Below, one piece after another: positions 3,001 to 36,500 of a DNA stretch of 39,326 bases. Every line of letters begins with the position of its first letter. The first letter of the stretch is position 1. The stretch lies in assembly GCA_964526865.1 (NCBI GenBank), contig CAZGMX010000001.1, forward strand, positions 1 to 39,326. The letters run 5' to 3'. Under the pieces are notes generated by a model, which made no database searches, had not been told where the DNA came from, and saw only the letters and a program-made list of their open reading frames with translations. The DNA comes from an uncultured Actinomycetota bacterium. GTDB taxonomy: Bacteria; Auribacterota; Ancaeobacteria; Ancaeobacterales; CAZGMX01. The position numbers were made by a program, and so were the translations under genes.

Positions 3001-3527
3001 CAACCGACACATGGTTTGACTATTCGGGGGGCAGGAAGACGATAAGCGGATCGAGCGGCTACACATCAGAGGGAGAAAGATTCACACAGAACTCTACATA
3101 CGATAGCAGTGGGAAGAATGTGGTGGCAAGCCGTCAGGAGACGGCAGACGCAAATGGCTTGATAACGACGACCAACACGGAATACGAGTATGCGGGGAAC
3201 AGAAGGACAATGAGCGTTGCGAACGGGTTCACATCGAGGGGTGAGAGATTTACACAGAACTCCGCATACGACGGCAGAGGAAAGAACGTGGTGTCCACCC
3301 ACCAGGAGACAAGAGACTCGGATGGAACACTGACAACAACCGATACGACATTCGGGTATGCGGGGAGCAGGAAAACAACAAGTGCCGCGACGGGCTCTAC
3401 GTCAGGAGGAGAAACATTCACACAGAACTCAACCTACGACGGCAGGGGAAGAAATGTCGTGTCAAGCCATCAGGAGACCACAGAAGCGAATGGTGTGGTG
3501 TCAACGACCGACACGACGTATGTATAT
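1..3527 (+). repeat. In-frame tandem repeat array: 21 complete units of 168 bp (56 aa), with unit 15 at 165 bp. Left-truncated by the window edge.
   Basis: Unit boundaries read directly from the sequence: 3-170, 171-338, 339-506 ... 2187-2354, 2355-2519 (55 aa), 2520-2687, 2688-2855, 2856-3023, 3024-3191, 3192-3359, 3360-3527. Approximate consensus: AGSKKTTSTTTGSTSEGERFTQNSTYDDRGKNVVSSHQETTDADGVVTTTDTTFEY. Every unit ends in F/Y-E/D/G-Y/F. SHQ is present in 19 of 21 units. Confidence 0.95.
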
Positions 3528-6500: not shown

Positions 6501-9500
6501 ACCGGCGGCGAGCCCTATGGTTTGGGAAATGTCTTTCTTTACAAGTACACACAACCAGAAGGCAAGTATTTGAATAAAGACGGCACCACGACATGGCAAG
6601 ATAAAAAAGTTTTGCCGGTGATTTATCAGAGTACCTATACGGAAACAACCGAGACGGTGGATGGCAAACAGGTGACAGTCAAACATGCGACAGGGCCGCT
6701 TAAACTCAAGTGGGGTTGGCAGAGCGAAGCGAAAAAGGACGCCTACATCGATGGGTGGGAAGAAAAGTTGTATAAAGATGGAAAGCTGACAGAGTCCTGG
6801 CTCAAGGCCACATACCTTGCCGGCGGGTCTGTTGACGGCCCATTTGGCTCAGCATGCAACAATTGTATCAGGAAAACAGAGTATTCAGCCGAAGAAAAAC
6901 CTCTTCTCATCACTGAGTACGAGGATGGGGAGCTCAAATACAGCATCACGTGTGACAACGCAACAGGCTTGCCTAACAAATTTGTTGTCTATAAAAATTT
7001 CAAGTTAAGAAATGTGGCAAATTCTGCGCACCCATGGCTGGCATTTCTGCCGGCGATCAAGGAAGGGCAAACCGTGGAACTTTATAAAGGGATGACTCTG
7101 ACGCGCGGGGCCGATGGCGCCTGGAGCGGTATTGGCACCTATGACATCAACAAGGGACTCGTGGGGGATGAGTATGTTATTGAATATGTGGATATTAATC
7201 CCGCAGATCCCTTCAAGTGTGAGCGCCACTACAAGGGCAGTAGTCCAGCCGACTGGGCAAACGGCCAAAAATGGTACGCGACAGTGACAGCAAATACAGT
7301 CGTGCCACAGGCCAGCGGGCTAATGACAATTGCCAAAGGGACGCGCTTCCATCTACCCCTCATAAAAGAGCATTATCCATACAGTGACTGGGTGGAGGGC
7401 TACAGGAATTTTGTCTTTATGGACGGCGCGGCGTACTTTGGTCAAGAAGGCCTGTATATTCGGAAAGGATATTCCACAGGGCCGGATGCCCAGGACAACC
7501 AATGCCGGATCCAGTCGATTGAGATTGTGAAGAAGGTGGCCACTGACTATACCACAGAACCCAAAACGATAACTCCTAAAGACAACGGACCATGGTTTGG
7601 AAATTACAATGTTTACCAATGGGACGGAGAGGAACTTCCAGCTCGAAACTATGTCTATAGCACGGATCCCAATTTCTTTATCTACAAGACAGCCCAATGG
7701 AATACGTTGTCGCGCCAGTGTTACGATTCAAATGCGGCGGCGGCAGTGTGGGCAGGAGGGACGGCGGGCGAATTTGTGCCGAACCCGGAATTGTACAGTT
7801 TATCGGGCATAACCATTTCTATTAAGGAGATTCCAAATTATTACGCGAAGCAAATCGGGACGGATGCGAACTATCGCCCCATTTATGCTTACAGGCCATT
7901 TCGTTATTTAGAGGCTACCATATCCGACGAGTGGACTGCCACCGCCACAGTCGATCTAAGAGCGCAACCAGTTTATGATGAGAGCCCCCTGGCCAGGACT
8001 TTCAAGGCGGGCACACAGTTCGGCAATGAAGATGATGTCATTTGCGCCGCCGGTGACTACATATACAAGATCATCTATGAAGTGAAACAAGAGTCGGGTT
8101 CCCCCGTGATTCCGATTGCCGATGGAATGAAAATTCTCCAGTGCCGGGGTGACGTAGAACGGGACGGTTACAAAATGCTCGCGGGCACCCAAATCAGGCT
8201 CGAAGACCTGAACAAATCCCCCCCTGTCATCTACAGCGGGACGATAGAGCAGGATGAATATGTAGAGGTCAAGTCTGATCAAGAGGCCGTGGGGGTAAAG
8301 TTAAAAATGCGCGTAAGACACGTCTTTAAAGACGGCGTGGAAGAAACGGACAAGAAACAAGTCGTCAAAAGATATTCCTACACGCTTGTTTCCGGCAAGG
8401 AAGAATCCGGGACATTTGAAATTCAACTGGTGCCCGTGGGTGCGACCGAAACTGGAGAGCCCACATTTGATCCTCCCAGAGTTCCATATACCAACTTCAA
8501 GACCAACGCCAACACGCGCATTAGATACGTCAACAATGCGATTGCGTCCGCTCAAACAGATGAAGTGAATGTGACCTACGACACGACGAATGCAGATCCA
8601 AACCATGCCCCGCAGGGGTGGATCATCATCGTCGTCAGAAAAGATGTCACGATCAAGCGTCCCGGCTGGGCGGATGAAATATTTAAAGCAGGACAAACAT
8701 ATAAAATGCCGCGAGGCGGCGACAGCACGCCCCGGCCGTATCCGCCGGCGGACGAAAAACTGCCGCTCGTCTATACATATTGGACGGAAGAAGTAAAGAC
8801 CGCCCAGACGGAATACCACACCAATGCGCAGGGTGTCCGGGTCCCAATATCCAGAAAACGCAAGATGATTCAATTGACGAAGGATGACACGCCTGTCGCA
8901 GTCTATGAGGATGTCTATGAGCGCACCACCATTGCCGGCGGTGGTTTTGATTGGAAACACGTCAGCCGGGAATACTTGGAAGATGACATTGAAGGCAGGC
9001 CCAGCACGGCGGAAAAACCCGGACAGTTGACGGTGTATCTTGCGGGCACCAAATTCACTCCGGACAAAAACGGGGACATCAATCCGCTGGCGCCGGATGA
9101 GGGGACTGTCTTGTACTTCGGCGCGCCCGATGCGCAGGGCAACCGGACCATTCGCGAAATGACCGCCAAGGGAGGCTACCCCATCAAGTACGCCGAATAT
9201 GACTACGACCCGGCAAAGAATTATGACAAGGCCTACATGAGCGCGCAATTTTTTAAGGATAATGAGGCCTATCAGGATACCCTCTTTCACAACCTGCCCG
9301 ACAGTGAAAAGGCGAAATGTCTGGTCACGGAGAAGGATCTGGAGGGAAAAACAAAAGTCGAGAACGGAGTCAATGTGCTGAAGGGGTATGTTCAGATTCC
9401 TGGGATAGGGATGATTGTGCCTAATTTCAAGCGCGTTAAGGATGCAATCGGCAAGGAGACAGGAGAAATACTTCCCGGATTCAACTTTGTGCGGTTTATG

Positions 9501-12500
9501 GATGAAAATTACGGAGATTTCCAGGACGATGAAAACGAAGAAGTTGAGGATCCAGTCACGGGTAAAGTCACAGGTCAGGACAATCGCTGGAGAGAATTGG
9601 ATTTTAACGAACAGGGCGAACCCTATTTTGACGCGGATGGAGTGGCCCAGATGAAATATGAATATTCATATCACGAAGATGCAGTCTGGGCCTACGATTA
9701 CACGGAGTTTGATGAAGATGACCCCGATGAAGAGTGGGTGCAGGCGTCATGGGAACTGCACATCCAGACCGTGAAGCAGGACATGGAATATTATGGGTTT
9801 TGGGATGGTCCCTGCGACGGGAGCGTAACGGAACAATTCACCCAGCGGGTGGCGCTCTTCCAGGACTATCAATCCAGAGTCGCCGGCAACATCTACCAGC
9901 GGATGCTCCAGGATACGTATCAGAGCCTGCTCGTATTGTATCAGACGGTGTGCGATAACAAAAACTCGGAGCAGCAAAGGTTGTCCAGCTTTCTTGCAAG
10001 TGTGGATCAGCAAAAGATGAACTACAACGAAATGTTGAGAGTCGAGTTGTCAGATTGGTTTCCAGACCAGGCAAAAATTGCGGGATATCGGGCGGAGCTT
10101 GAAAAGCTTGAGCAGTTACGAGCCAATCAGCTCACGGAAACAGAAGCCATCGTGGAACGGCTTGATGACTATCGCGACGATATCGTCGATCTTTTCGACG
10201 ATTTAGGGCCCTACGGGCCGAGGCGCTATCTGGAGGACGGCGGGATCGACGGAATGAGAGATATTTTGGACGTGCGCGGGCAATTGCTTCCGATCATCAA
10301 CAATTATTTGAGATACCAGGACGGTGCGCCGAACAGTGACGCTCTGAACGGTGAGTTTTTGACGGCGAAGCAGCGCATCGAGGATTCAAAGGCCCAATTG
10401 ACTCCATTGAAAAACAGCGTCAATGGCGGCGATTCCACAGGCTATGGTCAGGCCGTCAAAATATTGAATGACAATCTATTGAGAGTGTCCGATGAAAAAG
10501 TCGATCTTCTGGACAGCATGCTGGGCCTGCTCAAGATGGACAAAGTGGTGGCGCAAATCGAAAGCCTGACCAGCGACTACGACAAATCCGTTACGGATAT
10601 GAAAAGCACGATCCGGTCAACGTTGGCGCGACGATTGGGGGAATTGCAGGACCGCAAGCAAAAGGCCACAGAGTTGAAGGGGGAGTTGGAGGACTTGAGT
10701 ACGGAATTGAACGCGAAAAAATTGGCAATGGCCATGAACTTGGAGCGTGCTTATGGCCAGGCTGGCATACCGCTGGACTCGGCGGCCGCCCTGGTTGACA
10801 GGATTGTCAAAGAAAAATCTGTTGCTTCTATAGCTTCAGCGGCCTGGCAGCCTTATGCAGAATTGACGGAAAGCGATCTCATTAGTGATGCAGCGGCGAT
10901 ATGGGATGCGATGAAGCCGGTCATAGACAAGCAGAATGAAAAACCCGGCGCATACCAGGATATGTTTAATCTGGAGCTCATTGAAACGCTCATAGAACGC
11001 AATACTGCACTTTCGAACGGTTTTGAGGCAAGTTCTGACATGAAAGACTATATCCTGGATACAAGTCTTACCATGAAGGTGGCGGACAGTGTTGGGAACA
11101 TATCGTCTTTCCCGGTCAAAACGTTTTTCCAGACAAGGGAATGGAACCCGACCTTGAAGGCGTATGAAGGCATCTATGACGATTTCCTCGATACTAAATT
11201 GCAGACCTACTACTTGCTAAAGAATCCCGCAAACATCAGGCTCAAGGAATATTTGGCGGCACGGGGCAATGAATTTAAGGCGGATACTACCCTTACGTAC
11301 AGTGTGTCTCACATGAGTCTTTACATGGATAGGATTCTCAATGCCAAGGGGGCGGATGCCGCTTCTCTGAGTGAGGGGTGTCAGGAGACACGTGACAAGC
11401 CGCTGGCCATTTTGGGGAATATCATGGCCTACGTTAAAAAGAATCTCCAGCTTTTTGCCAACGCAGATAAGCCGGAGGTGCACAAACAGAAGGTGTCTGC
11501 CCCGGCGGAAAGATTAGACGGTTCAGATACGACATTGGGTACGCTGTGGGGTGCGACGAAGTATTGGGCGGGAGAAGCATGGGATACGGGTAAAACAATA
11601 TATACAGCTGTTTTGGATATAGGGTATCAGATCGACCGAGCAGTGTATTGGATGTCCGGAGGCACAACCCCTGATGGAATGACGACCTCACTACTTGGCG
11701 AAAAATGGATTCTCGACTACAGGACATCTGCACTGGCCGCCGCAGAAGAGCGGGCATACGGGACCAGAACGTATGACATCAGTGCGGACAAGACCCAACT
11801 TCAAAATAGTGCGGCAATGCTGAATGTCACACCCGAAATCGCTGCCGTGATACAGGAGCGGCAAGACCTTGAAGCCGACCAGGCGGCCTTTTCAGCAGGG
11901 CCTCTTTCAACCGTGTGGTCCGGCGTGTGGTCCGGCATTGGTGCGGCGTGGAATTGGGGTACAGGGCTTATTGATAAAAAACTCTTCAAGACAAATAAAA
12001 TGTTCAATGCATTGGCGCAAGGGTTTTCACAGCCTATACGCTTTCTCAAAGGTGCCGCACAGTTGGTGGCATCCGGGCTCTGTAGTCTTGCGGGTGCCGT
12101 AGTAGCACTGGTTGGGAATTTTATCAGCGGGGGGCACACATGGTGGGATAACCCGCTTACAAAAGCGGGCGTCTATTTGGGGACAGAAGGTCTGCTGAAT
12201 GTTGCTCATGCCTTTGAGAAAAAGCTGACATATGTTGAACCAGGTGCTCTGGAAGCACAGCAGGCTCAGCTGAAAGCCACGCAAGAGCAATATATCCGGG
12301 GGCAGGTTTCGATGAGCCAGCTCATGACGCAAATGGACAGAGCAACCGTGTTGCAGAAGCAGGTGCAACAGCGAGAGATTGCGTTTTGGAGCGGCGCTGG
12401 TCTTGTGATTACGGCGATGCTCGCAAGGGATATCTTTGGTATTGGCAAAGGATTGGCAAAATTTGTAGTGGATCGGTTTGTCATGAACAGAGTGAAGAAT

Positions 12501-15500
12501 TTGTTGGCGGAAAAAATGGCGGGTGGTTTATTCAAGGAATGTGTAAGGGCATCGGCCGAAGGCGGCGTGAAGGCGGCCTTAAGAGAATTTGGAGTGGAAG
12601 GTGTCGCGAAAGAACTCGCGAGCGTGGTGGGCAAGGAAGGAAATTGGTTGGCGGCGAGAATGTACAGTGAGGCGACCTTGAAAGGCGGGCTGGAGACAAT
12701 TTGGCGGGGAATGTCGAAGGAAGTGGTGGAAACGAAAATTGCCACTGCAATGGCCGGTCTTGCGGAAAAAAGTTGGCTGGGCAGTTTGGTGGATTATGTT
12801 GTTGCTGGGTTCTCTAACATCACCGGCTGGGTAGGAAGAGTTACGGGGCTTGGTCTGGGATCGACAGATGGGGTTATTCTCGCCGGGTTGGAGAGACGGT
12901 TATTTGGCGGGACGATAGAAAAGTTCATCAGCGACAAGGGTCTCCAGGCAGGTGCCGAAATCGCGAAGGTTCTGGTAAAAGATGGTCTTCTCTCGGAAAG
13001 TTTGGCCAACTCGCTGGCATCCCGGTTGATGGCGGCTATTACAATGCGTGAGACGCTGGGTCTTGTTGGGATGATGAGTATAGGGCAATGGATGTGGTAT
13101 CGCACCTTTGGCGGGGATGCCTATCTTGATCAGTTTGCGGCGGGGAAACTTCTGAGGGCGGCACCTAAATGGAATGAAGCGGCTTTGACGGAGACGCTGC
13201 TGAGATCGGGATTGAAAGAGACGACGGAGGGGCTTGTCAAGGATGGTGTCAACAAAGTGATAGCAACGAGAGGGGTGGAGGCCTTTGCCAGAAGGCTTGT
13301 CGGGGATACGGTGGGGCTGGAAACGCTTATCATGCAAAGAGGTTTAGGGAGGGGAGTTGCTTTTGTTTCCGAGCGGCTATCTAAAATTCTGCCAGGTGCC
13401 AGCCGAGAGGGGATACTAAAGGCGTCACGCGAAATTACCAATCTCGTCTATAGGGATTTTGTGACAGCTAATGTGCTGTCCCTCGTGCCGACGGGTACGG
13501 GTGTTTTTGGCAAGTTTATGGACCGGATTATGGGCCGCGGCTGGAATAAGGTGGACGAGATGCTGGTGCCCGGATTCAGGAATTCTAGGTTCCAGCTGGA
13601 GAGAATAATTAAGGGACAGGGTGCGGAGGGTGCCGCCAACGTCCTGGTCGATAGAATTGGTTTAAACAGCTTCTTCGCGAACAGGCTCACAGGGTTGGCC
13701 GAAAGGTCGTTGATTGAGGACATGATGGGTAAAGGCGGTCTGACAAAGTTTGAGAGTCTTCTCAAGGAAAAAGGTGTTCAGGCCGCTCGCGAGGCATTGC
13801 TGGCGGAACGCGGCCTGGGTGAAAAATTTGTCGCTTCTGTAACCAGCCGCCTGGAACAAAATGTGGTGCGGCAGGTTGTTGAAGCTTTCAGCCGTGAAGG
13901 AAGCGGGGCCGGCATAGCAAAGTTTGTGGAGCTGAGCGGTGAAACCAACTTTGTCAGCCGAATGGCGCGTATGGGATATGATCGGGAGTTGGCGGGCAGT
14001 ATCGCCAAACGGGCCCTGGGTGGGGAATTTGCGGTGGAGGCGGGGCTGGGCCAGAGACTATGGCAGAGTGTTACGTCCCGATTCCTGAGGGCGGGCAGGG
14101 AGTTTAAGACCTCCGTGGGAGAATTTGGCGTAAGGAACGTTCTCTCGCCCTATGAAGAATTTGGTCTTTTCGGTGAGAGAAAAGAGTTGGCCGGAATTTT
14201 GGATTCCACCAAAAAAATGTTCACGGATATTTACAACAAGGTGACGGGCTATAGCCCGCCCCATTTGCCGGGCGCTGCCGTGGAGCCGTTCACCCGTGCC
14301 ACGATGGGACTGGTTCCGACAATCATCCGCAATCTCGCGTTCGAAGGGTTGAATCTTGGCAAGATTCTGACGTATGCCCACATCGTGAATTATGGATTGA
14401 GCAAGTTTGATTCTTCCGCCTTGATGCCGGCGTGGATGATAAAGGCGAACGATTGGATCAAGGCCCAATTTAACGCGTGGGCCCCATCGTGGGTGAAACA
14501 GGCGTTGGCACCCGTTGCAGCCGCCGGCAATTGGCTCAAGTCGTTGATCATTCCCACACACGATCCCTTCGGCGGCAAGGTGGAGAAAATAGGTTTCTTT
14601 GCCGCGGTGGGACAGGATTATTGGAACAACTTCAAGGAGGGGATCAAACTCTACGTCATCATGCCCTTCTTGAAACCCATCGCCAACTTTTTGGGTATAG
14701 ACAAGGTGTTTGGCCGGCTGGCAAACGCATACGGAAACCAGCTTGTCGGCCGCGCGGGGGGACAGAGTCTTTTTGGCGACGTGGTGGGCAAAGTATTTGG
14801 CGCGCGAGGGACCGCGTTGATGCAAAGGGTCGGCGCAATGTTTGAAAACGAAGGCCTGAGGCATGCCCAGTCCTTCTGGGTGACGGACAAGACATTCCAA
14901 TTTGGCTGGTGGCTCTCGGAGAGTATTGGATCAGGAATTTACAGCCTGAACAATTGGATATCTGGCGGCGATAAAAATACCATTCTTCATGATATAGGAA
15001 CCTCCTTCATGCCGGGCGGGTTCATGTACGAGTATCTGCCCCTGCTTTTGATCGCCTCCGGCCCCGTGGAGACCCGCGCCATCATCGGCCGTGAAAAGTT
15101 CCACAACGACTTAAGAATGGAGCAAATGAACGGCGCGAGAAATTCCATGATGGGAGAAGGCCTGGCCAAAGAAGGATTCATTACGGTCGATGTTGCGAGA
15201 AGACTGGGCGAACAAGGCACCGATGCAGCATTGAGCCGCATGCGGTCCGGCCTGAATTATGGAGCGTTTGAGAGGGGCGGCGCCAATGGGGTCGTGTTCC
15301 GCGATGCAGAGACCGGCAAGATCCTGGACATCATGGGCGGCAGGGAAATGGGCTATCGCGCGATGCTCAACATGTCCGACAGCGCTGGCTACGCCAGCCT
15401 GACCAAGGCATTGGAGAGAGATTTTACCCGCAGCGAGGCGGACCAGCTTGGGCTGGAGGCGATGTACCGCCAGGGAAGAATCGGGATCGACGGCAGTGTC

Positions 15501-18500: not shown

Positions 18501-21500
18501 AGTTTTGTACAGCCCCCCCTCTTTGACGGTCAGTCGCTGCGTTGGTTGGAGATGGATGGGAAGGGAGTCAAAGTCATTGAAGCGCGAGAGCTCAATGTCG
18601 TTGTTGGGAAAGACAAGGCCGGGATCGACATCGTGGAGCAGAAAACAAAAGTTGTCACGCGGTCCATCGACGAATTGACGGGGGATTTTTCAAAGGGCAA
18701 GGTGACGACAAGGATATTGGACAGCCAAGGAAAAAATTTCTTGCGGGCTGTTACGGATGTGAGATCTCAAGAGGTGAAAGAAGTTGAGATAGAGGGTGTG
18801 GTGAAGGAGGTCGTTTGGGATGCGGACGCGGCCGAATACAGGATGGTGATGGATATTGAAAACAGTCCCACCCTCAGGGGAGAGCGGGATGGACAGAGGG
18901 TCATGGACCGGACGTATCATGTTGATGGAAAAGGGAATTTCGAATTTTATGAGGAAACGTCGCAACGAATTGACCGCACGGAGAGTGAGAGGCAGGGCAA
19001 GGATGTTTGGGTGGAAAGCAAGACAACGCATGATTTCATGGGGAATGAAATCGACACCGTTTCCAAACAAAACATGGACCGGGTGAGAAATGCGTTTGAC
19101 GGCAATGACAAGGCCGGAATTCCACTGGCGGATGCGTCAGCGAGGATGGAGCGGTCAGCGCTCAAAAAAGAATTTGATGCGGAGGTTGGGAAGTTGAGAG
19201 AGGAAGGATCCGGTTCGTCGCTGAGCCGTCTGGTGGATATCTTTAAGCAGGTTGTGGGCATCAAGGCGGGCAATCTTTCCATGGCGGAGAGGGCGGCCTT
19301 TGGAAAGTTTCTGATGGAAAGGACGATAGAAAGGGACGGTTCCGGCATTAAAACCTTGATGGATGAAGCCCTGAAAGGGGAGGTCGGCAAACGGGACTTC
19401 AATATGATAGAGCAGGTGTCAGAGGCGTTGGGATTGCCTGATGTTGTCAGGGCCTTTGCGGAGGCATCTCGGTCAACGGACAAATCCCGTGCCCCACCGT
19501 ATCCAAAAAATCCTATGACCGGCAAGGAGATCAAGACGGTCGCGGACCTGGAGTCATTCCTGAGAGACAACTTTGTGGCGTATGCGCAGGTGTTCTTTGA
19601 AAAAGTCGGAAAGAAATCAGACGGAGGCTCGGTGAGTTGGACAACCAAACAGGTCAGCTTGCTTCAAAGAATCCTCCTGGGCGAAACAGGTCTCCTGGGC
19701 ACAGGCGGTGGCAAGACGGGGGTCAACATCATGGCCGCTGGGATCATGAGCGAACTGGGCAGGCTGATGGAGGCAGAAAATCTGGAGACCGCCGACGGCA
19801 AAATACGGCGGCAATATGCCGCGATCCTCATGACGGAAAATCCCGCTTCTTCGAACAGATACGTTGAAGACGACATGGGCGTCAAGTTGACCCATCAGGA
19901 ACTTGCCAGTGCGTTCGGGATCAAGCTGGTGAACGGGTCCAAGTTGGGACTGAAAAACCAGTTGGATGACCTGGCGGCGGCACTCGAGTCGCGAAACACC
20001 GTGGTCGTGATCGATCCCACCCAGGCCGGCTTCTTGAACCTTTCCCGCCGGGAGAACTCGCGGCTGGCCAACGCGTTGGACAAGACCACCCATTTGATCA
20101 TCGATGAAATCGACTTATTGGCAAAATCCACCCAGCAATATATCCGCAGTGCCAACAAACCGGGAGAGCGGGAGAATCAGGCAGAGGTTGCAAACTATTT
20201 GGAGTTGGGCGAGACAATTGAAACAAAATTCAAGAGGGTGGAATCCGAGGACGTGAATGCAGTCTATAACAGGAACGAGGCCAAGATAAAAGAATACGAT
20301 GAGGCCCTGGCCAAAGGGGAAATCGTTGAAAACGGCGTGAAGAAGGCCTTTGGGGCACAGGAATACAGACAGGCGCTGGAAGACCTGGGTGTCCTGGTGT
20401 ATGCAAAACAGAGCGGAGACCAGGGGGTCAGCGGTTTTACCAATAAGGCGGCGGAGAAATATTTTGCGACGTTCAAAAAGGGAGATGGCGCAAGATTTGA
20501 AAAATCGGACATCGAGCAGGCCCTCAGGGCTCAGGTGCAGGAATACGGCACCAATTATACGCTGGAGGCGCACCGTCTCCGACCCGTGGAAGGCAGCGTG
20601 ACAGAGACGCAGTACAGCGACCTGTGTTTTGCCGTGAATCTGGCAAGGAGGGGAAATGCCGAACTGGAAAAGGCAAAAGGAGGGGTCGATTCACAACTAT
20701 ACAAAGACAATTTCCTGAATCCAAAAGATTATGTTGCCAACAAGACCAACACCCAGGCCTCCTTCATCGAGTTCTGGCAAAACATCAGCAGTGCCAATCC
20801 GAGTGTTGATGGAAAGGAAGCCCAAGGCCTGCAGGTCAGCGGCACGACAGGAACAGGCGGCCAATTCCTCAACGTGATCAAGGATACCTTTGGAACGCCC
20901 ATTGCCCTCATCGAGGAGTCCACATTCGACAGGAGCCGCCTGACTGACGAGAACGGCAATGAAAGGATACGAGACGAGAGCGATGATGTGGTCACAGAAG
21001 TGCGGGCATTGGCACGCCGGAATGTTGGAGACAAGGACACCAATGCCACGGTCCTCGTGAAGGTGAAAGATGTGAAGAGCGGCTTGCCGCTCGTGAGCAG
21101 GGCGGGGCATGAGTCGTACCGGTGCCGGAGCGAAAGGGACTCTCGGGGGCAGTTCAATGTGTTCAATGACCGGGACACGATGAACGAGTCCATCAAAGTG
21201 AGACAGGAAATGGACGGAAGCCTGACAGTTGTCCGCGTTGGGGAGATGAGCAATCCAGCGCGGGCGAGTATGGAATCGGCAAGGGATGCTTATACCCGGG
21301 CGCAAAACGAGTACTATGAAAAAATGGACGAGGCATCCAGGAGCGCCATGAACGAGGCCAAGGCAAAGTACGACCGGGCGGATTCGGAATATCAACGGGC
21401 CCTTGCCGCGGAAGATGCCCTCATCCGGAATAATCAGGCGCGGGAAGTCCTGCTGGAAGACGGCACACCAAACGGCACGACGGCCTTCATGACGCTGGAC

Positions 21501-24500
21501 AAGTCCAACAATGTGTTGAGTTTGAGAGATGCTTCCGGCAAGGAGATCATGCGGTCCGGCAAGTATCTTTCTGAGATGGGGCTCACGGTAGCCAAGAACG
21601 GTCAGATCAAGATGGGAGAGACCACCCTGGGGACCGCGAAGCGATCCAACCGCATCCTTGTGGTTGATGAGTTGACGCCGGCGGAATTCATCAACCTGGC
21701 GGCCAACTATGGCGGGCAGAATAAAGACATTCTGATGACGTACAACCGCAACACGCTGACGGGAGTGGATTACCGCGGTGAATTTGACCAGTTTGTTTTT
21801 GGAATCGAACAATTGGATGAGAACCTCGCCAACCAGACGATGGGCCGCGTGGGGCGGGAAGGCGCCCTTGCCAACCGGTTCCTCTTTGTGGTCGAATCGG
21901 AAATGCAGAAGTCTCTGGGCCTCATCGGACAGAAAGAAAGACTCCAGGGACTTCAGTCCGTGTGGGAGGCAGGGCGGGACAGAGAGAATTCGGAATTTGC
22001 CCAGCAGTTTAGGGAGGGCAAGATCGAACGTCAAAAGCATCAAGAATCGGTGGAAAACAACCGGTATCAGGAGAATCTGGATCTTTTGGCAAAGTTCGAT
22101 GAAACCACGGCAACCGGTTTTGATAAATTGACCAGTTTGGAGAAAATGATGCTGGTGGGAAAATACCGCGCGGCATGTCAGGCGGCCGCGACGGAACTGT
22201 TCAAGGTGTCGGACACGGCGAGGTCCAAGGAAGTGTTGAAGCCATTGAAAGACTTGATGGACACCTTCAAGGTGAACGGCGCTGACACGGCGGCCAGCAG
22301 ACTGCTGGAGAGTGTTTTTGAGAAACACCTGAGCCGGCGGCCCACCAATGCCGACATCACGCGCAGCGAAGACGATCTGATAAGCGGCAAACAGAGGGTT
22401 GCCGAGTCGCTCTTGCGGGCACTGGGGGAAGCGGATACAGCGGCGCAAGAAGTATTGAAGGCGCTGCAGGAGGGCACCGCCAATGTGGAAGCGGCGGACG
22501 CGGCCCGGCTCAAAACAGAGATCGAGAAGGGGATCGAGGGACGCAAGGCCATTCGGGAACAAATTCAAAGCGATATCGACAACAACTTTGCCGGTGTCAG
22601 TGAAAGATTGGCGGGCAAAAAGCTGGCGGATTCACTCAGCAGTGCGAAAGACACGCAGGCAATCTATGATTTTGCGATGAGCAAGATTGCTCCTCACATC
22701 GTGCCGGAGATGCGCAGTGAGGCCATGCGATCTGAAAATGAAGTTTTGGCCAGGCAGCTGGCGCAAGAGACCCAGACTGCCAGGGCGCCTCCGGCTCCCA
22801 AGACAGTGGAGGAATTCCGCGCAAAACTCACCGAGAGTCAAGCCGGCAGGGAGGGAATGCCCGCCCTGCCCGGCTACACCGACGCCCAAGTCAACGCAAT
22901 GGTCACAGCCAGCAACTTAAATGCCGCGGGAACCCAGGAGGAAAAAGAAAGGCGCCTGGCCAGTGCCTGGAGCATGCTTCAGGGGGGTTATGCGGGTGCC
23001 TTGCAGACGCATTTGGTGTCGCTGTCCGGCGCCATGATCCCACAGGGAGCCACCCAGCAGGAGATCAACACCCAAATATTCGTGGGGTTGATGAACCGGG
23101 GCATTCTGGACACCGCCGCCGCGCAGAATGTGTCTTTGCAGCAGATTGGTTCTATTGCCTACATTCAGGCCCAGCTGCAAAGTTCGATCCCTGATGTGTC
23201 CGTGGCACTGACCGCGCAGGATTGGAACGACATTCGCAATTTGGGGGAAGGTTCTCTGGTCAATTATGTTGCCCGGGCGACGCAGGTCATATTGGGAAAA
23301 ATAATCACGGCACAGCGCAGTGATTTGAGTGCCGATGAAAGGACGAACATTGAAGCGCACGTGGTGGCGCCCTTCGTGCGGGTGCTTCAGCAATACCGGG
23401 ACCGGATTGCCAATAAGGAGCTTGGAAAACTGCCCACCGTCGCGGAAATATTTGGCGTCGCCAGAGACTTTGTCCAGGAACTGAAAAAGCAGGGAAGGCA
23501 GATGGATGAGCAACAGACCGAAGCAATGGAAGATGTGTTTGTAGACGCGTTGATGGCCAATGTGGACGGCATCGGATTTGGCCAGGACAAAGTGGAGGCC
23601 CTGCGCGTCATGGATCGCACGGTTCAGAGTGTGAAACCGGGCAGTATCCTGAAGGCCGAAACGGCGATCAATATATTGAAAGAAAGGGATCCCATCAAAC
23701 GCAACGACATGATCCGGACCATGCTTGTTGCCGCGGCAAACGAGGACCCGGAAGGTGCCTTCCGGTTTGATGTCATGAGCCGTTTGAGGCGCAGTGCGGA
23801 AAGTGGAACGGTGCTCTCGGCACAGGCGATCCAGAAAGTGATTCAGGATGTCCGCACAAAATACAACATCATGAGCGATGAAGTGGCGTACCGTTGTCTC
23901 AGAGAGGATATTGCGGGCCTCTTGCAGGGGCTGGGGCAGGGGAACCGCGAGAGAATGTTGGACGCAAAGCTCAAGGGCATGTTCGGAAGTGTGAAGCTGG
24001 GTGAGGAGGTTCCCCAGGCAAAGCAGAAAGCGGCCATGGCTCTCCTGCCCAGGTTTATGGAAATCATGACAAGCTTGAGTCCGAGCGTCCAACTCAAGGA
24101 ATTGATGAAGGCTGCCGTGGAAATAAACAAGGGCATTAGCAATCCAGAAGAGCAGTTGGATACCGGGCCGGAAGCCTTGCAGCAGCTTGCCAACGCCCTG
24201 CAGAAGGGTGTGGCTCCCATCGCCGTCCAATACATTGTGATTCAGCGTCTGAGGAATTTGACTGCGGAGAACCTGGATCTGAGCGATATCACCTTGGACG
24301 GCATTGTGGCGGATGCCAATGGCTTTGCTCAGGATGAAAAACAACTGCAGTCCCGCGCAAAGGTGCTGGAGTTGGCCGGCGGAATCCTGTTTGAAAAGGC
24401 GATGGAGCAGAACAAGCTGTATCAGGCGGAGCAGGCAGTCGAAATAAAGATCGGTAAAATCGTGGAAGCGACAGTGCCGGAGGCACAGCGCTCGGGTGTT

Positions 24501-27500: not shown

Positions 27501-30500
27501 AAAGCTCTGATCGGCACGGAAGAAGAAAACAAGGCGCTGGAGGAATTGGACACGCGCGGCAGTCAAAAGCTTGCTGAAGTGGCAGGCGCGTACGGTCAAA
27601 AGATACAGGAACTTCGTGCCAAGGTGGATCAGGCGCAGGGTGTTTTAGATGCCGGCGTGAGAAATGCGACAGACCGTGAGCGGCTCCAGAAAGTTGTGGA
27701 TCAGGCCAACGCCGCGCTGAAGACTCTAGAAGATGGGTTGGCCAAGGCCATGGCGGATGTGAAAACAAATACAGCAAGCGCGAGGGAAGCGCTCGTGCGG
27801 GCGATCCGCGAAAAGAATCTGGCGATAGAGCAGGCACGGTTGGAACGCCTGACACAGTTGGGAGTGGTCCTGGCGGCTGTGGATCAAGCCCGGGTAGCGA
27901 TGGTGCAGGCAGCGTTGGCTATGGATCGGATGGGAGATTATCCCAAGGCGGCCCAAAGCTTTGATGCGGCATTGAGCGAAGAGGTCTCGAAACCTGTGCA
28001 AGAAAAACTCGACGCCATCGGCAAGGCGCAGATGGAAGACATGAACAAGCTTCGCGATGAAGCGCTCATCAGTGCCGAGGCGAGGGACGTATTAGTACAA
28101 AGGCATCAGGCAAAGATCGATGCTGCAGCGATCAGTCTGGAAGAAGAATATCAAAAGGCCGACACGGACCTGGCACAGAGGCAGGCGGCGCTGGAGGCAC
28201 TGCCTGTGGCAGATCAGGACAGCGATCTACTGGGGAAAGTGATTCAAGCGCGGGCGGATTTGAGGACTGCTTATGACGCTCAAGTGGCTGCCCTGGATCA
28301 GCGGGCCACAGAAGGTATTGCTGCAATTAAGAAAGCGATAGATGAAAGAAACGCGAAAGTGACAGAGGCGTTGAACAAGCGGTATGAAGCGTTGGCCGAT
28401 ATAACGTTCAAGGCCACAGAAGATCCTATGGGTATTCGTAAATCGCTGATTCGATTGGAGACGCTGGCCCATCAGATAGAGTTGGAGATTGCCTCGCAGA
28501 CTGCCAATCGCCAGCTTTCACCCAACGCCAAGGCCCGGCTGGCGGAGTTGGAGGCCTTGTATCAGTATGAAAGGGAAGCACTTCTTTCTCGAGCGCAGGA
28601 AGAAAAGAAGACATGGGGATTGAAGGATGAAGCGGAGCTCAAGAATGAGTATGAGCCAAAGATTGCGGCGGCTGAAGCAAAAATATCCAATGCCAAAGAC
28701 GCATTGGCCCGGACCATCGATCCTGAGCAGCGCAAGAAGCTGGAAAAGACTCTATCGGAAGCGCAGGCGGAACAGAAAAACCTGACAGAACAATATGAAA
28801 AAGCGAAATCGCAGACTGCTGCCGCGGTGCTAAAGGAGCTGGAAGCGCAGCTACCCGATGTAGAGCGCAACGCGCAGATCGCGCAGTATTTGGGCACCCA
28901 TAACGGCAAGAGCAAGGAAGAATGGCAGGCGGAAAAGACCAATCTGGAATACAGGATACAAATGCTGCGTATCTTGTCATCGGAAAATGTGGCTTCGGGC
29001 TTGGAGACGCAGTTCAATGCAACGCGCGATCGAGTCAAAGCCCAGCAGAGAGAAAACATTCTGGCCTTCCTCAAAGGGGAGTTTGATCTGAAGCTGCCAT
29101 TTGCCGGGGTCAGTAGTGGGGCACAGATAGTTAATGTGGAATACGAAGGGGGAATTGAGGCGGAGGTGGAACTTGCAAATGCCGTTGCTCTCAATCAGGC
29201 CGTAGATGCCATCTATGGCCTGCCGGATTCTGCCATCGGCCGAATGGAACCTGTGGTCAGCCTGAGAGAAGACGGCACACCGGCGGACGCAGAGAACAGC
29301 CGGATTGCGGTGATGTTGAAAAACGGCCAATACGCCCAGGCGGAGAGTGCGTATCAGGCGCTCTTGGCACAGGCGCCGTTTGATCCAACGGATCGGGCCA
29401 GTGTGGAAAGAACGCTCAACTACGCCATGGCGCTGGCCAATCAAGGGAAGTATGAACAGGCCGCTGATGCGGTTAAAAATCTGGAACTATGTTCCCGTGC
29501 GGTTCTTGACAAGCTGGGCGGCAAAGACCTTCAAATTCGCAAACTCATTGATCTGCTTTCCGGCACCGAGAAGTTGGCACAGCAGCCAAACATTCCGCCG
29601 ACAGAGCAAGTAACCAATTTATACAACTATGCGCTGGCATTGGCGAGGACGGGCAATTTGCAACTGGCAGCCCAGGTTGCCAGGAAGGCCTGTGGGATTG
29701 CCTATCTTGTTGAAAAGCCCACAGACGAAGATGTGTTGGCGTTTAGAAGGATAAGCCTGTTGTATTCGCTGGTCTTGGCGGCCTTGCCGCATGACCAGAC
29801 AGCGATACGCAACAGAAGCGATGAGCCCGGCGGTTATGGGCGCCGCATAGAGACGCTTCGCCGGGACAATGAAATTGAAACGAGAACGTATAATGCCATT
29901 GTTGGGATGGTGATGGGTGTGGTGAAGAATTTGGCTGGAGAAGTGATCTATTCTTACCAGGAGAATGCCAATGGTATTCGGTATGTTCAAAAGCCAAATA
30001 CGGATTTAGAGGAAGTCTGGGATGTGCAAGGCGCGGTCGCGGGCACATTAAAACACAGTGATCTACCCGATTTGGCGGAAGTGGAAGACGTGCAGGGCAA
30101 CGTGGGCGATGGATATATTGCATTTAGGCTTGGCACTGGGACGCGATTGATCAACGCCCAAACAGGTCAGAATGTCTTGCTTGATACAAAAGAAAGACTG
30201 TCCAACGTCAAAGTGATTGCCCTGGGCAATGGCCGGTTTGCGCTCTACGCCCAGAACCAGTCCGGTGACGGTTTCTTGCGGCAGTTCAGTGCGGATGACA
30301 CGGCGATTTCGGATACGGGAATGTTTATGGCCCGGTCGTTGGCCGGCGGCAAATTCAAGGTTTTTGAGATGATAATTGAGGGCGAATGGCAGACGGTGGT
30401 GGTGGGAGAAAAGGAAGGCGAATTTATCACACTGCCCAACACGCGGCTAGGGGATGTTTCGGCAATGCGCGATGGTGTAGCTCTTGTTGTCTGTCGCGAA

Positions 30501-33500
30501 AACGGGACGCTGGAGATACGGGATCCGCACACCGGATGGATTTTGGCGACGCTAAAAGATGTGGCCGCCGCCCAGATCGTGCGGGTTGTCAGCGAGACCA
30601 AGGATGAGAAGCAGACCGCGCAGATCACATTCAGGACGGCGACAGGGCAGGTGACGCAGACATTTGTTGCCCAGGAAAAGGTGCGGGAGATAAAAGTTGA
30701 GGATATTGGGACAGCAGCCGGCTGGGGCGATTGGATCAAGCAGTTGTTTGGATCTGGCGCGGAGGTGCCGCTCTTGCGCTTCAGCGACACGGATGTAACA
30801 AGCGGCAAGAGCGTTCAAAAAGTGGTGCCAATGCCGGCGGGCGTGAATTTGAGCATTCCTGTCCAGATGCAGGCAGACGAAAAGACGGGAGCCGTGACAA
30901 TCACACTGCAGACCATGGATGGCACGGCGGATATTTCCTGGGGCGGGGAGTTGAAAGAAACGGTCAAGGTCGTGATCAAGGAAGGGCAGAAGGTCACAGA
31001 AGAGATTTGGGAGGCGTCTGACAGGCTGAAGGAACGGACCGTAACGGACACCAAGACGGGCGATGTCACAAAGACCGTGTGGGAAGGAAACAAGAATGTC
31101 CGGACCGAGACGGTAGGCAAAAGAACAATCACCACTACGGCAACTTATGATTCCGCGACGGACCAATGGACAACCGAGGAGGAAGACAAAGCCCTGGGAC
31201 TGAAGCTCACCAAGACAAAGAATGCCCAGCACGAAGTACAAAAGGTGGTGCTGGAAGACGCCAAAGGCAACAAGGTGGAGGTGTCACCGGAAGCACTGCC
31301 GGAAGATATGGACGGGATTGTGGGAGCAAATCTGGAGCTTGGCAGTGGGATGTTTGCACTGGATATGTTGGATGATACAGGAGTGGTTCACACGCGCCTG
31401 TTTGCCCTGGGCAAATGGGCGCCGATGGCAGGGGTGAGCGCCAGCCAGATCAGGCCGTTTGGCGGCGGGCAATTGTTGTATCCCAGGGTCAAAGACAACA
31501 AACCCATCTGGATTGTAGCCGCGATAAAGGTGGATTCCCAGACCAAGAAACTTGTGCTGGAAGAACGCGAATATAGCGCATTCCAGGACAGCGGGTCTGT
31601 CACGGCGTTTGAAGGGACGCGCAAGGAGAAGAATCAAGCCGGCATCGAAGTGGATGTGCCATTCGTCCAGTTCCTGAACCGTGATACGGGCCAGACATCG
31701 GTTGTCTTTGGGGCGGAATTAAAGGATGTGCAGTCGTTGGGCGAAGGTGTCCTGCGGGTGGAGCGCACACTGGATGGCAGGCAGGATGTCGTTGTCCTGG
31801 ACAGCGCCACTGGAGCGGTCTTGCAGACAGTTGAGGCTGGGCAGGCGCTTTGGGATTCTGCCCGCCGCGTGAAGACAACTGACGGCAAGAGCGCGGTGGA
31901 GCTGGTCAAGAAAGACACGGCAGGGATGGGGATGGAGATTTCGCAATACCAAGATGGTGTATTGGCGGGTAGTGCCGAGGTCTCATTAACAGCCGGTGTG
32001 GTCAGTATAAAAGCTAACATCCAGGGGAAAGCGACGGTAAGAACAGTCGCGCTCAGCGATGGTGCCCCAATACAGGCACTGCAGTCCATTGACGATATCA
32101 CGTTGGATACGAAGAGTGGCAAGGTTGTTACGCGTGCAAAAGACGTTGATGGAAAAGATGTGTTTATTTTGACATCGGATGCGCTGGGTCAGCAAGCAGA
32201 GGTTGGGCTGGGCAAGGTGCCTGAGGAGGCAACAGAAGTTTTTGTGTATGGCGAAGATGGCAAGTTGGTGGAGTCTAGAAGAGTGCTTGACGACGGCCTT
32301 GTTAAAGGATTCTTGTACCAAGACGGATTGGTGGTGGGCACATACATTGGCGACACTAAAGCTGGTCTCCGGATGATTATCCATTGTGATCCCTATGCAG
32401 AACCGCCAGCCGTGTTAATGGACATCAAAGATATGCGCAGTGGTGCGGTTGTGACCGATGTTCCAAGAGGGATTATAGGAGATATGGCAAACCTGAAAAC
32501 GCTAACGCCGGATATCGGTGGTGGTGTAATTCTTTTGCAGGGGCTGGATAAAGAAGGCAGACCTGTGACGGCCTTTTACAATCCAAATAATCCATCTGCC
32601 GGTGTTCGGCAAGTAAAGGGTGTCACCGAATTCTCCACGCAGTCTATCAATAAAGGCGTCGTGTTCTACCAGGTGCATGTGGGAGACACGGCTCAATTAC
32701 AGACCGTAGCACTGGATATCGCAACAAATAGCAAGGCGTACTTCTCGGATGTACAACCCGCAAGGATATCTGCTTTGGGAGACGGTGCATTTGCGTACGA
32801 GAAGGATTTAGAAGGCAAAATTCAGACTTTTATTTCTACAGCGGATGGTCAAGTGCGCCGGATTGCCGGAGAAGAACGTGTTTTAGCCTCTAGTATTTTA
32901 ATGAAAGACGGCCGTTATTATGGCCTGATGCGCAATGCGCAGGGCAATCTGCAAACTATTTGGTTAAATCCAGCGACAGACAGAACAACCCAGGAATCGG
33001 TATTAGAACCCTTGGTTATACCTGCGACGGAGCTGGGCAGGTTGTTTACGACCTTTAATTTTAACCCCAATCTGTTGGGCTACACAGAAAACAGGAAGAC
33101 CTTTGTCATGGACAGCGTGACGGGACAGGTGGTGGACATCAGCACTGCCCTGGCGCAAATGGGTTGCACGCTGAAAGATATCGTGGATGTCAGGATCGAT
33201 CTGTCGGGCGCGGCATGGATTGCGGGACAAGACCGCGAAATAAGAAGTGACGCCGAAGGGAATGTGACACTGGATGTGCCCAGACATCACGAGATCAGTC
33301 AGGACGCTCAAGGCAAAGTGACAATGGAAGTGACCAGATATATGGAAGGCGGTGTTGAAGTCAGTGTGATAAACGATTTGGCAAACAACATCACAAAGAC
33401 GATTCGCAAGGCAGCCGACGGGACCTCGACAGTGGTTGAAGAAGCAAAAATGGCAGATGGAATAACGCCAAAGTACACCAAGACATCAAAACTCGATGCC

Positions 33501-36500
33501 AAGGGCCAGGTGTTGGAGTCAATCACGACAGACGTGGCGACAGGCCAGGTCACACAGGAATGGCCGGTGGAAAAGAAGACCCTGATCACACTGGTAGATT
33601 CGCAAGGGAATTTGCATCAAACGGTTATTACGCCCAAGTCGAAGGTGACAGAGGTATATGAAGGCAACATTGCAGACGAGAGCAAGATACTTTCAAAAGA
33701 GATCGAAGAAAACGGCCAAATCACAACGATCACGATGAAGGCCGGCGGGATCCAGGACGCCGTCGTGACAGACCTACAGAAAAAGCCGATCAAGACATAT
33801 CAAGAGAATGCGGCCGGAATCCGCGTGACGCGCAATGCCGGAAGCGCGGTGGTGGATGTGGAAGACACCAAAACAGGAGCCATACAAAAGGGCATCTTCG
33901 CGGAGTTGGTTCCCGGCATCGCCCAGATTTACGGGGTAGGAAGAGATTTGGGGACGCGCTATGTCGGACTGGAAGTGCGAGATGCGGCAGGCAAAGTCAC
34001 GACGTTATTGATCGACCGGATCAGCGGATCGCAGTTGGAACTCAAGGATGAGGACAATAAGAATATAGGCATAGACAGTGTCGCGCGACTGACCGACCGG
34101 TATTGGCTCATTGGCGTGCGGGATACGCAAGGCGCTGCGCATCTGAAGATCTACGACATCACAGTGAAGCCGCCGGCAAAGCCGGTGATGGAATTGGCCA
34201 GCGGCGATGCCAACACAAGCACGCCTATGGATAAGGAAGGGAATATCCTGGGATATCAGATTTTAGGCGATAACGGTCTGGTGGCGGGAGTGGCGCTGAT
34301 CCACACCCAGACGGGCGCGGTGAGGATGATACCGAACACATCGTTGAGGAACGTCTCTCTGTCTGAGGATGACAAGATGATCTTCGTGGAGAGAGGCCAG
34401 AGTGCCACGGGAGTGGAGTTGGAGGTCTGGGACTTTGCCGCAGGAAAAGTCCTGGACACAGTGGATGCGCCACAAGGCCAGAGGAACATTGTTGCCAATG
34501 CCGACGGCACGCTGGACGTGATCATGCCCTACGGCCTGGCCCGGTTTAAGGACGGGGAAAAGATCGCCTCTGTCACGATCGACAACAAGGCGAAGAAATT
34601 GACGGTGACCTTTGGCCAAGACAGTCCCAAAGTGGTGCCGGTAGATCAAATCGTTCCCGAAGGCTATACGCTGACGGTTGATCCGGCCAAGAAAGAAGCC
34701 ACTCTGAGTTATACCACAGGGGAAGGCGCCGCGGCCCAGAGAGTGGATATCATCACCGAAAAGGACCAGGTTCGCACGATCACAGAGGGTGCCGAAGGGA
34801 CAGCAGAAAAGATTCACACACCGGTGCAGATCTCGATCACCAAAAAGGATGCCAACGGCGTGCTGCTGGAAGAAAGCCTTGAGTCGGCGGCAGGGTTGGA
34901 AGAGAAGCGCTATCAGGCAGGCCAGCTGGTGTTCATGTTAAAGATCGATGCAAAAACGGCGCAGAAGACCGAGGAGACATTCAGTGCGTCCCTGCATGTG
35001 ACAACGCAGTTCGATACCGAAGGAAATGTGATATCCGAAACGACAGAAAATCTCGACACGAAGATCGCGGTAAAGAAGGTCTTTAAGGACGAAGAACTGG
35101 TCAGTGAGACGACGGAATATCAGCTCAAAAATATTGCCGTGACCACGACGCCGGATTCATCGAGGGCAGTGGTTCGCAACACCAAGACCGGGGAAGAGTT
35201 TGAGGCGTTGAAGTCCGCTGTAACTGACTTTACAAATATTCAATTTAACGTCGTGCCCGGCTGGCATGCCATCGAATATGTCAAAGCGGCCGGGACAAGC
35301 GAAGTCATGATGTTAGATCCTGCCACCGGAAAAACAGTGACACTGCCCGCGAAACTGGATCAGGTTCAGGCCTTTGGCCGGGAAGCGATTTTGGTCAGCG
35401 GTCTGGAAGAAAACGGGGAACCAACATTTGCCGTCTATCGGAAAGACGGCCAATATTGGCGGGTGGGATCTTTTGCTCCGCAAGAACTCGGCAAGGAATA
35501 CAGCTTGTGGCGTTTCACAGACAGTGAGGCGCCGGTTGATACGCCACCGATGAGGGTGGTGTTCAACAGGGCCAATGGCGCGGCGGCGATTCTGCCGCAG
35601 GAGGGATTTGATAGTGCGTCGGTCAACGCCGAGGGCTTTGTTGTGGCCGTGCAGAAGGTGGGAGCGCAGGCGATAGAGACGACCTATGACGCGGACTTGA
35701 AACCCATCAAGCGGGTGACAGCCGGGCCGGACAAGACCGTGGTGGAAGATCTCACAGCCAACACGATCGAGACGACCCAGAAGAACAGCGATGGAACGGT
35801 GACGATCATTAGGGAAGAGAAATTCGCGGATGGCGCGTCCATTATTGAAACGATCAAGGGCACAGGGAAGACGACAACGATCAAGAACATCGCCGGCCAA
35901 ATAAGGACGATTGTCTATGAGCAGGAGGGAACACCCTACAAGGTAGAGATCTCAGTGCAGGCCGGCAAGGCCTCGATCGTGGATCCCGCAAACATGAGCG
36001 GCGCATTGGAAGTAACGCCGCAGACAGCGCAGGCGATCATCGACAAGGGACTCAAGATAGAGGGGATTAGTGCTATTGCCGAGGGTGTGTACATTCTGAC
36101 CGCGCTCAATCCCGCGGGAGTCCGGCAAAATTATGTATTGAGCGACGGCCAAAAGACGCTGACCAATCCCATCGCGGGGGAATTGAAAAATATTCAACCC
36201 ATATCCGGCAAGGAATTGTATTTGGGATTTGTCCAGGCAACGGCGGACAAGCCATCCCAGGTAGTGGTTTTTGACAACAAAGGCAATGTCACGGTAGTGG
36301 GTGAAGGCCTGGAACTGAAGGATGTCAAGCCGCTGGCCGAAGGCTCGCCCCTGTTTGCAACCGGGATAAAAGACGAGAAAGGCACTGTCACGGGGACACG
36401 GATATTGGATATCACCAATCCGGCCAAGCCCGTCCCGATCGTGATGGAAGGAGTAACTCCAGAGGAGTTGTCGGGGGCCGTCAAGATCGATGTGGGCAAG

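Follow-up and report, generated by a model that had tools for sequence, protein, structure and literature searches.

Giant bacterial proteins of 10,000-150,000 aa present an unsolved logistics problem, that of insertion into and passage across a membrane, for which the foremost proposal in the literature is a built-in SecA-like motor. Most giant proteins of the Omnitrophota encode divergent SecA DEAD and SecA preprotein-binding domains (West-Roberts et al., 2023; 10.1101/2023.11.21.568195). These SecA-like domains are without scaffold and wing, adjoin transmembrane regions and form a long-branched clade apart from the normal SecA of the same genomes, and the role proposed for them is export of the giant protein itself (West-Roberts et al., 2023). 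Among long Omnitrophota proteins, a cluster of 20 shares an architecture with PF07517, and 15% are 'Pfam-dark' (10.64898/2026.06.07.730766). Here we describe a motor module encoded in a 39,326-nt stretch of contig CAZGMX010000001.1 (the window, meaning the whole stretch analysed), within one open reading frame (ORF) of 13,108 aa. Judging from sequence, aa ~6546-7300 (nt ~19,640-21,900) are almost certainly an ATPase of superfamily 2 (SF2). On balance, we favour the reading that this is a DEAD-like SF2 ATPase with a SecA-like core architecture, which would act as a membrane-tethered polypeptide motor on the giant protein.

By description, the module is like the published ones in its location within a giant ORF, in the SecA-like order of nucleotide-binding domain 1 (NBD1), an insert at the position of the preprotein cross-linking domain (PPXD), and NBD2, without scaffold or wing, and in the hydrophobic segments nearby. 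Its named relatives are from Omnitrophota, it diverges strongly from canonical SecA, and the self-export hypothesis applies to it as well. Unlike the published modules, which were found with Pfam-type hidden Markov models (HMMs), the module and nine relatives are invisible to PF07517, PF01043 and PF21090. The first-pass annotation of the window had treated a motor fused into a giant protein as an unfamiliar arrangement, which was wrong, since it is described in the 2023 study and again in 10.64898/2026.06.07.730766. The window is a very divergent new example, from a subfamily that escapes HMMs, of an arrangement already published in 2023, and not a new kind of system. Because standard models miss the module and all nine relatives, such motors may be commoner among 'domain-dark' giant proteins than Pfam surveys show.

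The ATPase module and its relatives

Frame 3 of the + strand is open at both ends and runs through all 39,326 nt, and the other five frames contain 157-637 stops each. The module does indeed lie inside a protein of more than 13,000 aa, as had been claimed:

3-39326, + strand: giant host protein, a single ORF in frame 3 with 0 stops and with no start or stop inside the window

Six motif strings listed in the first-pass annotation are present in the same order, and each translates exactly at these positions:

19698-19718, + strand: Walker A (motif I), GTGGGKT, with codon 19713-19715 encoding the Walker A lysine, K6571
20091-20120, + strand: Walker B (motif II), HLIIDEIDLL
20751-20786, + strand: re-entry string, TQASFIEFWQNI
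20835-20858, + strand: motif III string, VSGTTGTG
21738-21779, + strand: motif V string, TYNRNTLTGVDYRG
21801-21899, + strand: motif VI string, GIEQLDENLANQTMGRVGREGALANRFLFVVES

Motifs II and III are 241 aa apart and motifs III and V 294 aa (~240 and ~290 aa had been estimated). Over the 13,108 aa, there is a single match to each of the patterns DE[IVLA][DH], [ST]G[TSA][TS][GA]T and Q..GR.GR, and G.GK[ST] has two. As the patterns are unique or nearly so in a protein of this length, their ordered occurrence is not due to random scatter. The module is divided as follows, with the evidence in brackets:

19638-20156, + strand: first part of NBD1, the N-terminal RecA-like lobe (profile alignments, AlphaFold2 confidence (pLDDT) of 60-86, Foldseek)
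20157-20738, + strand: insert of ~195 aa that separates motifs II and III of NBD1, at the PPXD position of SecA (hhalign, phmmer)
20739-20921, + strand: re-entry into NBD1 (NKTNTQASFIEFWQNI), motif III SGTTGT (aa 6946-6951) and the next strand (aligns only with SecA 384-411)
20922-21644, + strand: first part of the second lobe, with a lineage-specific insert (family alignments, AlphaFold2 helices)
21645-21902, + strand: C-terminal core of NBD2, with a 'TP..IN' strand-helix and motif V TYNRNTLTGVDY at 21738-21779 (blastp, profile alignments)
21903-22682, + strand: helical C-terminal extension of ~250 aa, conserved in the family (family alignment, blastp, AlphaFold2 pLDDT of 63-88)

The N-terminal lobe contains a Q-motif-like glutamine (Q6550), segments like motifs Ia (19818-19862) and Ib (19998-20042) with FGIKLVNG (19911-19937) between them, and the Walker B DEID followed by a 'YIRSAN' strand (20091-20156). 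The insert, which had been placed where SecA carries its PPXD, is exactly there; its N-terminal part is variable, and the C-terminal block (aa 6835-6884, nt 20505-20654) shows a conserved pattern, 'A.RA ... Y ... PVE.G ... SD'. The extra insert of ~180 aa in the second lobe is beta-rich and then forms a two-helix hairpin; it is lineage-specific, being absent or short in two of the relatives (P0005 and P0006). The long hairpin is predicted at about aa 7084-7145 (nt 21252-21437; AlphaFold2 model helices 565-588 and 593-623, pLDDT about 70-77), in agreement with the coiled coil suggested earlier at about 21270-21440. In NBD2, motif VI (QTMGRVGR, 21834-21857) is followed by RFLFVVESE. The C-terminal extension includes LTSLEK...FKV...PLK (nt 22128-22262), and blastp matches run to aa 7507 in relative P0003 and to aa 7493 in P0002.

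Searched exhaustively with HMMER, a set of 1.84 billion representative proteins yielded eight relatives (E 7e-28 to 4e-5), all of them large proteins or fragments thereof. An additional metagenome scan provided a ninth, L094, an ORF of >5,803 aa (E 2.3e-49) whose four matching blocks are collinear and take in the C-terminal part of the insert (retrieved by phmmer with an iE of 2.5e-4). An N-lobe block (aa ~6522-6770) and a C-lobe block (aa ~7198-7306) occur in the same order in the relatives, with 284 to 1,050 residues between them. The clusters of five of the eight HMMER relatives carry a source name: four are Omnitrophota (including Ca. Tantalella remota, whose complete 6,031-aa protein is P0001, also L092) and one is given only as 'bacterium'. 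By these searches, the family is small and its known members are all very large proteins; every member with an organism name is from Omnitrophota, and by these names the window would be from Omnitrophota too.

In every relative that covers the position, the Q-motif glutamine, the Walker A GKT, the Walker B D-E and the G and T of motif III are invariant. Also invariant where covered are the N and G of motif V and the Q, R and R of motif VI. With all catalytic positions invariant in the members that cover them, the module appears to be under selection as an ATPase, and it is probably active, with two RecA-like lobes.

Curated models do not recognise the module. Searches of aa 6401-7500 with Pfam, NCBIfam and PADLOC gave no match for SecA, DEAD, helicase or P-loop. 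Neither the window nor any relative matches PF07517, PF01043, PF21090 or PF07516, so that the search with PF07517, PF01043 and PF07516 that had been proposed as a check came back empty (as a positive control, E. coli SecA scores 436 bits against PF07517). Pfam recognises the module as SecA in none of the nine relatives and finds no match to Helicase_C. Below threshold are a match to DEAD in P0006 only (E 5.9e-4, 20 bits against a cut-off of 26) and one to Helicase_C_2 in another relative. A phmmer search of the motor region against all PDB sequences found nothing, and tblastn against phage and plasmid collections gave no match. Genome, viral and metagenome contigs scanned for peptide patterns from the window itself gave none either, so its source contig is absent from these sets. 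A word-indexed protein search with the single sequence, a 7-sequence core and a 4-sequence C lobe also gave no match; it missed relatives known to be in its collection, and is thus blind to the motor family.

This failure of every curated model is what could be said for the view that there is no ATPase domain at all and that short motifs have come together by chance in a very long low-complexity protein. Set against it are the uniqueness of the patterns in 13,108 aa, catalytic residues that are invariant in nine other proteins, and profile-profile and Foldseek matches that are all to SF2 ATPases. Conservation in the nine relatives refutes the chance reading, to which we give practically no weight.

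Likeness to SecA and to other SF2 families

As in canonical SecA, the Q motif, Walker A and Walker B are followed by an insert, a 'QT..' re-entry, a G-x-T-G-T motif III and a second lobe with motifs V and VI. Signatures common to both are FGLxV.G, DE.D....II.G, A.RA...Y...V[DE]..G...SD and QxxGRxGR. We compared a 7-sequence core alignment of the family by hhalign with residues 1-620 of 31 SecA sequences, collected by scanning species-representative genomes (E. coli b0098 and 30 orthologues from bacteria). The match has a Prob of 96.4% and an E-value of 1.2e-9 over 432 columns, with query 8-498 on SecA 81-586. It is collinear through NBD1 (which maps to SecA 79-230), the C-terminal half of the PPXD, the re-entry strand and motif III, and NBD2. 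Reversed and column-shuffled controls gave E 0.24-0.81. The natural 9-sequence family alignment matched SecA at E 4.6e-8 over 361 columns, and subsamples of the SecA alignment, cut to the depth of the control families, matched over ~300 columns at E ~1e-7 (four sequences) or 5e-7 to 4e-3 (two sequences). When the E. coli SecA sequence alone is the target, the best local alignment falls on SecA 306-396, the C-terminal half of the PPXD and motif III (E 0.0054).

The control families align to a smaller extent, and SecA ranks first in the whole-length hhalign comparison. Four E. coli DEAD-box paralogues matched over 126 columns of the N lobe only (Prob 78%, E 1.8e-5; Prob 78-90% across comparisons), and RecG with Mfd matched over motifs V-VI only (E 4.6e-4). 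BLASTP against E. coli SecA was not significant, its small fragments landing on Walker B and motif III. Searches with the family HMM against single SecA, DEAD-box, RecQ, RecG, Mfd and UvrB sequences were indecisive (at most 10 bits, the best shuffled decoy reaching 3.6).

The most serious competitor is a DEAD-box-like or generic SF2 nucleic-acid helicase or translocase that independently gained an unrelated insert in lobe 1 and works on RNA or DNA (e.g., the giant mRNA). We regard this as unlikely. The N lobe aligns best with DEAD-box proteins (E 1.5e-7, 129 columns), ahead of SecA (E 0.0096) and RecG/Mfd (E 0.032), and the DEAD-box RNA helicases RhlE, DeaD, RhlB and SrmB of E. coli share with it the Q motif, Walker A and motifs Ia, Ib and II. 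However, SecA and DEAD-box alignments themselves match at E 3.9e-8; as SecA is a DEAD-like SF2 protein, likeness of the N lobe to DEAD-box proteins does not exclude SecA ancestry. The alignment with DEAD-box proteins ends at motif II, and in these proteins motif II leads to motif III without an insert. The motifs DEAD, SAT, ARGxD and HRIGRTGR that they carry differ from the DEID, SGTTGT, LTGVD and QTMGRVGR of the module.

The insert itself lies at the SecA position, and SecA is the one family, of those compared, whose alignment continues through the insert and motif III, at the cognate positions. The C-terminal block of the insert (aa 6835-6884) matches SecA 305-359 at E 0.021-0.024, a score reached by 2 of 100 column shuffles, as against E 0.59 for DEAD-box and 0.89 for RecG/Mfd. 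The spacing of its signatures is compatible with that in SecA: A.RA, an aromatic residue 9-10 positions later, V[DE]..G a further 10 later and SD a further 8-9 later. The block of re-entry and motif III matches SecA 384-411 ('QTLASITFQNYF...GMTGTA') at E 0.037, with 0.74 for DEAD-box and 0.62 for RecG/Mfd. Also arguing against a nucleic-acid helicase are the membrane-associated giant protein, in a lineage with documented SecA-like domains, and the result that Pfam finds no nucleic-acid-binding accessory domain.

The C lobe matches RecG/Mfd at E 8.1e-5, SecA at 3e-4 and DEAD-box at 5.3e-4. The module shares with Mfd and RecG a 'TG[IV]D' motif V, a 'QL[RK]GRVGR' motif VI and a similar spacing between them, but only 40-100 residues align, the N lobe is dissimilar, and there is no TRG motif or wedge/RID context. 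Motif VI had been offered as a signature typical of SecA and not of generic DEAD-box helicases, aligning with SecA residue for residue. It does align, with one 1-residue gap needed, and it separates the module from DEAD-box proteins; as a marker of SecA in particular we rejected it. QxxGRxGR is common to Mfd/RecG, so the argument from motif VI sets the module apart from DEAD-box proteins only.

An AlphaFold2 model from an 8-sequence alignment has a mean pLDDT of 52.5, with 60-86 in the N lobe, below 50 in the insert, 50-70 in the C lobe and 63-88 in the C-terminal helices (a single-sequence AlphaFold model, with a pLDDT of 38.6, is uninformative). Foldseek with the AlphaFold2 model found nothing in the PDB at E <= 1e-3. 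Its best matches (E 0.009-1), which span ~190 N-lobe columns, are to SF2 helicases throughout: Dicer-2, MDA5, RECQL5, BLM, Hel308, Brr2, Mfd and eIF4A. The structural comparison that had been suggested as a check led, from a low-confidence model, to Dicer-2, MDA5, RecQ and Hel308 and not to SecA. The model supports a predicted SF2 fold; since the diagnostic insert is not confidently modelled, the structure cannot decide the SecA question.

Several of these results weigh against a SecA-like reading. The N lobe is more DEAD-box-like than SecA-like in these alignments, and the C lobe is generic, not differentiated among the families, so the SecA-specific signal consists of two weak blocks with E-values of 0.02-0.04. 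When all window residues are forced as match states, the match to SecA falls to E 1.3e-3 and that to DEAD-box holds at 1.4e-6. No SecA model matches the window at E <= 1 in Pfam or E <= 10 in NCBIfam, or the relatives at E = 0.1. The best PDB match of the family profile is Mfd of M. tuberculosis (E 5.4e-5, motifs IV-VI of the C lobe), with no SecA chain at E <= 10, and an N-lobe profile finds a Dicer-related helicase and Ski2 weakly (E ~0.05), along with spurious repeats in designed TIM barrels. There is no SecA among the top 50 Foldseek matches, and the AlphaFold2 model behind them is poor. The motif V arginine of SecA (AGRGTD) is Thr or Val throughout the family, and of the SecA stretch from motif V to the strand preceding motif VI the module lacks ~33 residues. 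A scaffold with two-helix finger is not detectable in the C-terminal extension (hhalign against full-length SecA, E 0.45-0.67), and the membrane topology is a prediction by hydropathy scan. Those of these points that concern the closeness of the N lobe to DEAD-box proteins and of the C lobe to Mfd/RecG, the sub-threshold DEAD and Helicase_C_2 matches in one relative each, the top Foldseek matches and the motif V without the SecA arginine are also what the helicase reading has in its favour.

Canonical SecA membership is rejected: scaffold and wing, the motif V arginine and the curated models all fail. The module has ~16% identity with canonical SecA and lacks the scaffold with its two-helix finger, the wing, the SEC-C zinc finger (no Pfam match in the window) and the segment between motifs V and VI. 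It has in addition the ~180-aa insert in the second lobe and the ~250-aa helical extension. Canonical SecA is a soluble 100-kDa protein, whereas the module forms part of a chain of more than 13,000 aa. A resemblance by eye of the C-terminal extension to the SecA scaffold ('LEFKIRE' and 'NFDIRKQ') was rejected (hhalign E 0.45). Because scaffold and two-helix finger are undetectable, the canonical push mechanism of SecA cannot apply. Of the SecA-type motor put forward in the first-pass annotation, an SF2 ATPase with SecA-like domain order stands, and canonical SecA, with scaffold, wing and motif V arginine, does not. We consider it quite likely, with help from the prior that the literature provides, that the module shares the SecA-like core architecture, with the insert at the PPXD position, by common descent.

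A possible membrane-tethered polypeptide motor

Hydropathy scans place hydrophobic segments on both sides of the motor, in the window and likewise in the relatives, and Pfam finds repeats downstream of it in the window:

12057-15089, + strand: candidate membrane helices upstream of the motor (Kyte-Doolittle, 19-aa window, a crude predictor)
29733-29951, + strand: aa 9911-9929 and aa 9965-9983 as candidate membrane helices on the downstream side of the motor (peaks of 1.60 and 1.46 by Kyte-Doolittle)
27906-29471, + strand: tetratricopeptide (TPR) repeats, aa ~9302-9325 (27906-27977) and ~9772-9823 (29316-29471), matched by Pfam TPR_2 (E 3.8e-6) and TPR_16

The strongest upstream candidate is aa 4019-4037 (peak 1.98), with weaker ones starting at aa 4126, 4342, 4881 and 5011 (peaks 1.14-1.41); candidate helices upstream of the motor had been noted before, and the hydropathy peaks lie at aa 4019-5029. 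The downstream candidates would close a putative cytoplasmic segment that holds the motor. The TPR repeats sit inside a long helical region downstream of the motor, at a distance of 1,500-2,500 aa from it in the window, P0001 and L094. As they follow the motor in P0001 and L094 too, the order of motor, helical region and TPR repeats seems to be conserved.

We predict that a membrane-tethered polypeptide motor would work as follows. The membrane helices of the giant protein itself would tether the module, which would face the cytoplasm. ATP would be bound between the two lobes, by K6571, D6701/E6702 and R7282/R7285, and its hydrolysis would open and close the cleft. This motion could drive the insert domain as a clamp on unfolded polypeptide, and the clamp could help parts of the giant protein to cross the membrane. 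Its cargo would most plausibly be the beta-rich stretch of at least 3,100 aa that is synthesised later than the motor; partner proteins may be carried instead. That the module is a cis-acting export motor is something we only infer.

The same ATPase could instead be a SecA-derived nucleotide-dependent switch or chaperone-like holdase that serves folding, assembly or processing of the giant protein in the cytoplasm, and not translocation. Such a role would fit the loss of the scaffold with two-helix finger, the wing and the C-terminal zinc finger, the replaced motif V arginine, the large lineage-specific inserts and new helical extension, and the TPRs, typical protein-interaction modules, downstream in three family members. 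However, all residues for ATP binding and hydrolysis are invariant, and a motor between hydrophobic segments suits a membrane-proximal job; we consider the switch or holdase improbable. A bolder version of the export idea is that a new SF2 ATPase family of very large membrane proteins, missed by every curated model and with its conserved helical extension standing in for the SecA scaffold, forms a self-contained, SecYEG-independent 'auto-translocon', which threads its own downstream segments through a channel of its own helices. This is a long shot on present evidence; if true, many 'Pfam-dark' giant proteins would carry a cryptic export engine. For biochemistry of the favoured SecA-like motor, aa 6521-7560 are a compact conserved construct, with K6571, D6701/E6702 and R7282/R7285 as targets for mutation.

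Remainder of the giant protein and relatives' gene context

Beyond the TPRs, the host protein of 13,108 aa is Pfam-dark. Pfam finds none of the enzyme, dockerin or TSP3 domains that define the published classes of giant proteins. After the second hydrophobic cluster, a beta-rich region extends over ~30000-39000 (aa ~10000-13000) and is rich in T, S, G, V, D and N. Recurring segments like 'A..G..(A/V)L..(Q/R)...G...' suggest repeated beta-propeller or Ig-like units there, with no Pfam match. The second match to G.GK[ST], GTGKT at nt ~35859-35873 (aa 11953-11957), lies in this region and is probably due to chance; there is no Walker B or other ATPase motif near it. At the other end of the window, a tandem array at 9-3517 has a period of 168 nt (56 aa) and ~21 copies with 72% matches. 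Its 56-aa repeat is T/S/G/D-rich with a recurring 'YD..G.NV' motif and looks YD/Rhs-like. Pfam gives no RHS match in the array, only an ATPgrasp_N match that is seemingly spurious and repeat-driven, with no single stretch passing alone.

Long ORFs on the minus strand (e.g., 20697-22568; others of 150-620 aa) were considered as genes and set aside as most likely artefacts, with no Pfam match. The coding strand is purine-rich (GC and AT skew are positive throughout), which depletes stop codons on the reverse strand.

Among the relatives, P0001 carries an Rce1-like/CPBP intramembrane protease domain and TPRs; its NCBI annotation is CPBP protease only, and the motor is unannotated. P0008 (L089 3-5728) begins past the site of Walker A. 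At the end of the contig, its start shares 4 nt with a 119-aa gene fragment. A gene-calling or frameshift artefact, and not a real loss, probably accounts for the absence of Walker A. The giant gene of P0010 (L090 1-9588, contig JBDRLM010000049.1) is directly downstream of RND-type efflux genes, which encode a membrane-fusion protein and ACR_tran pump fragments.

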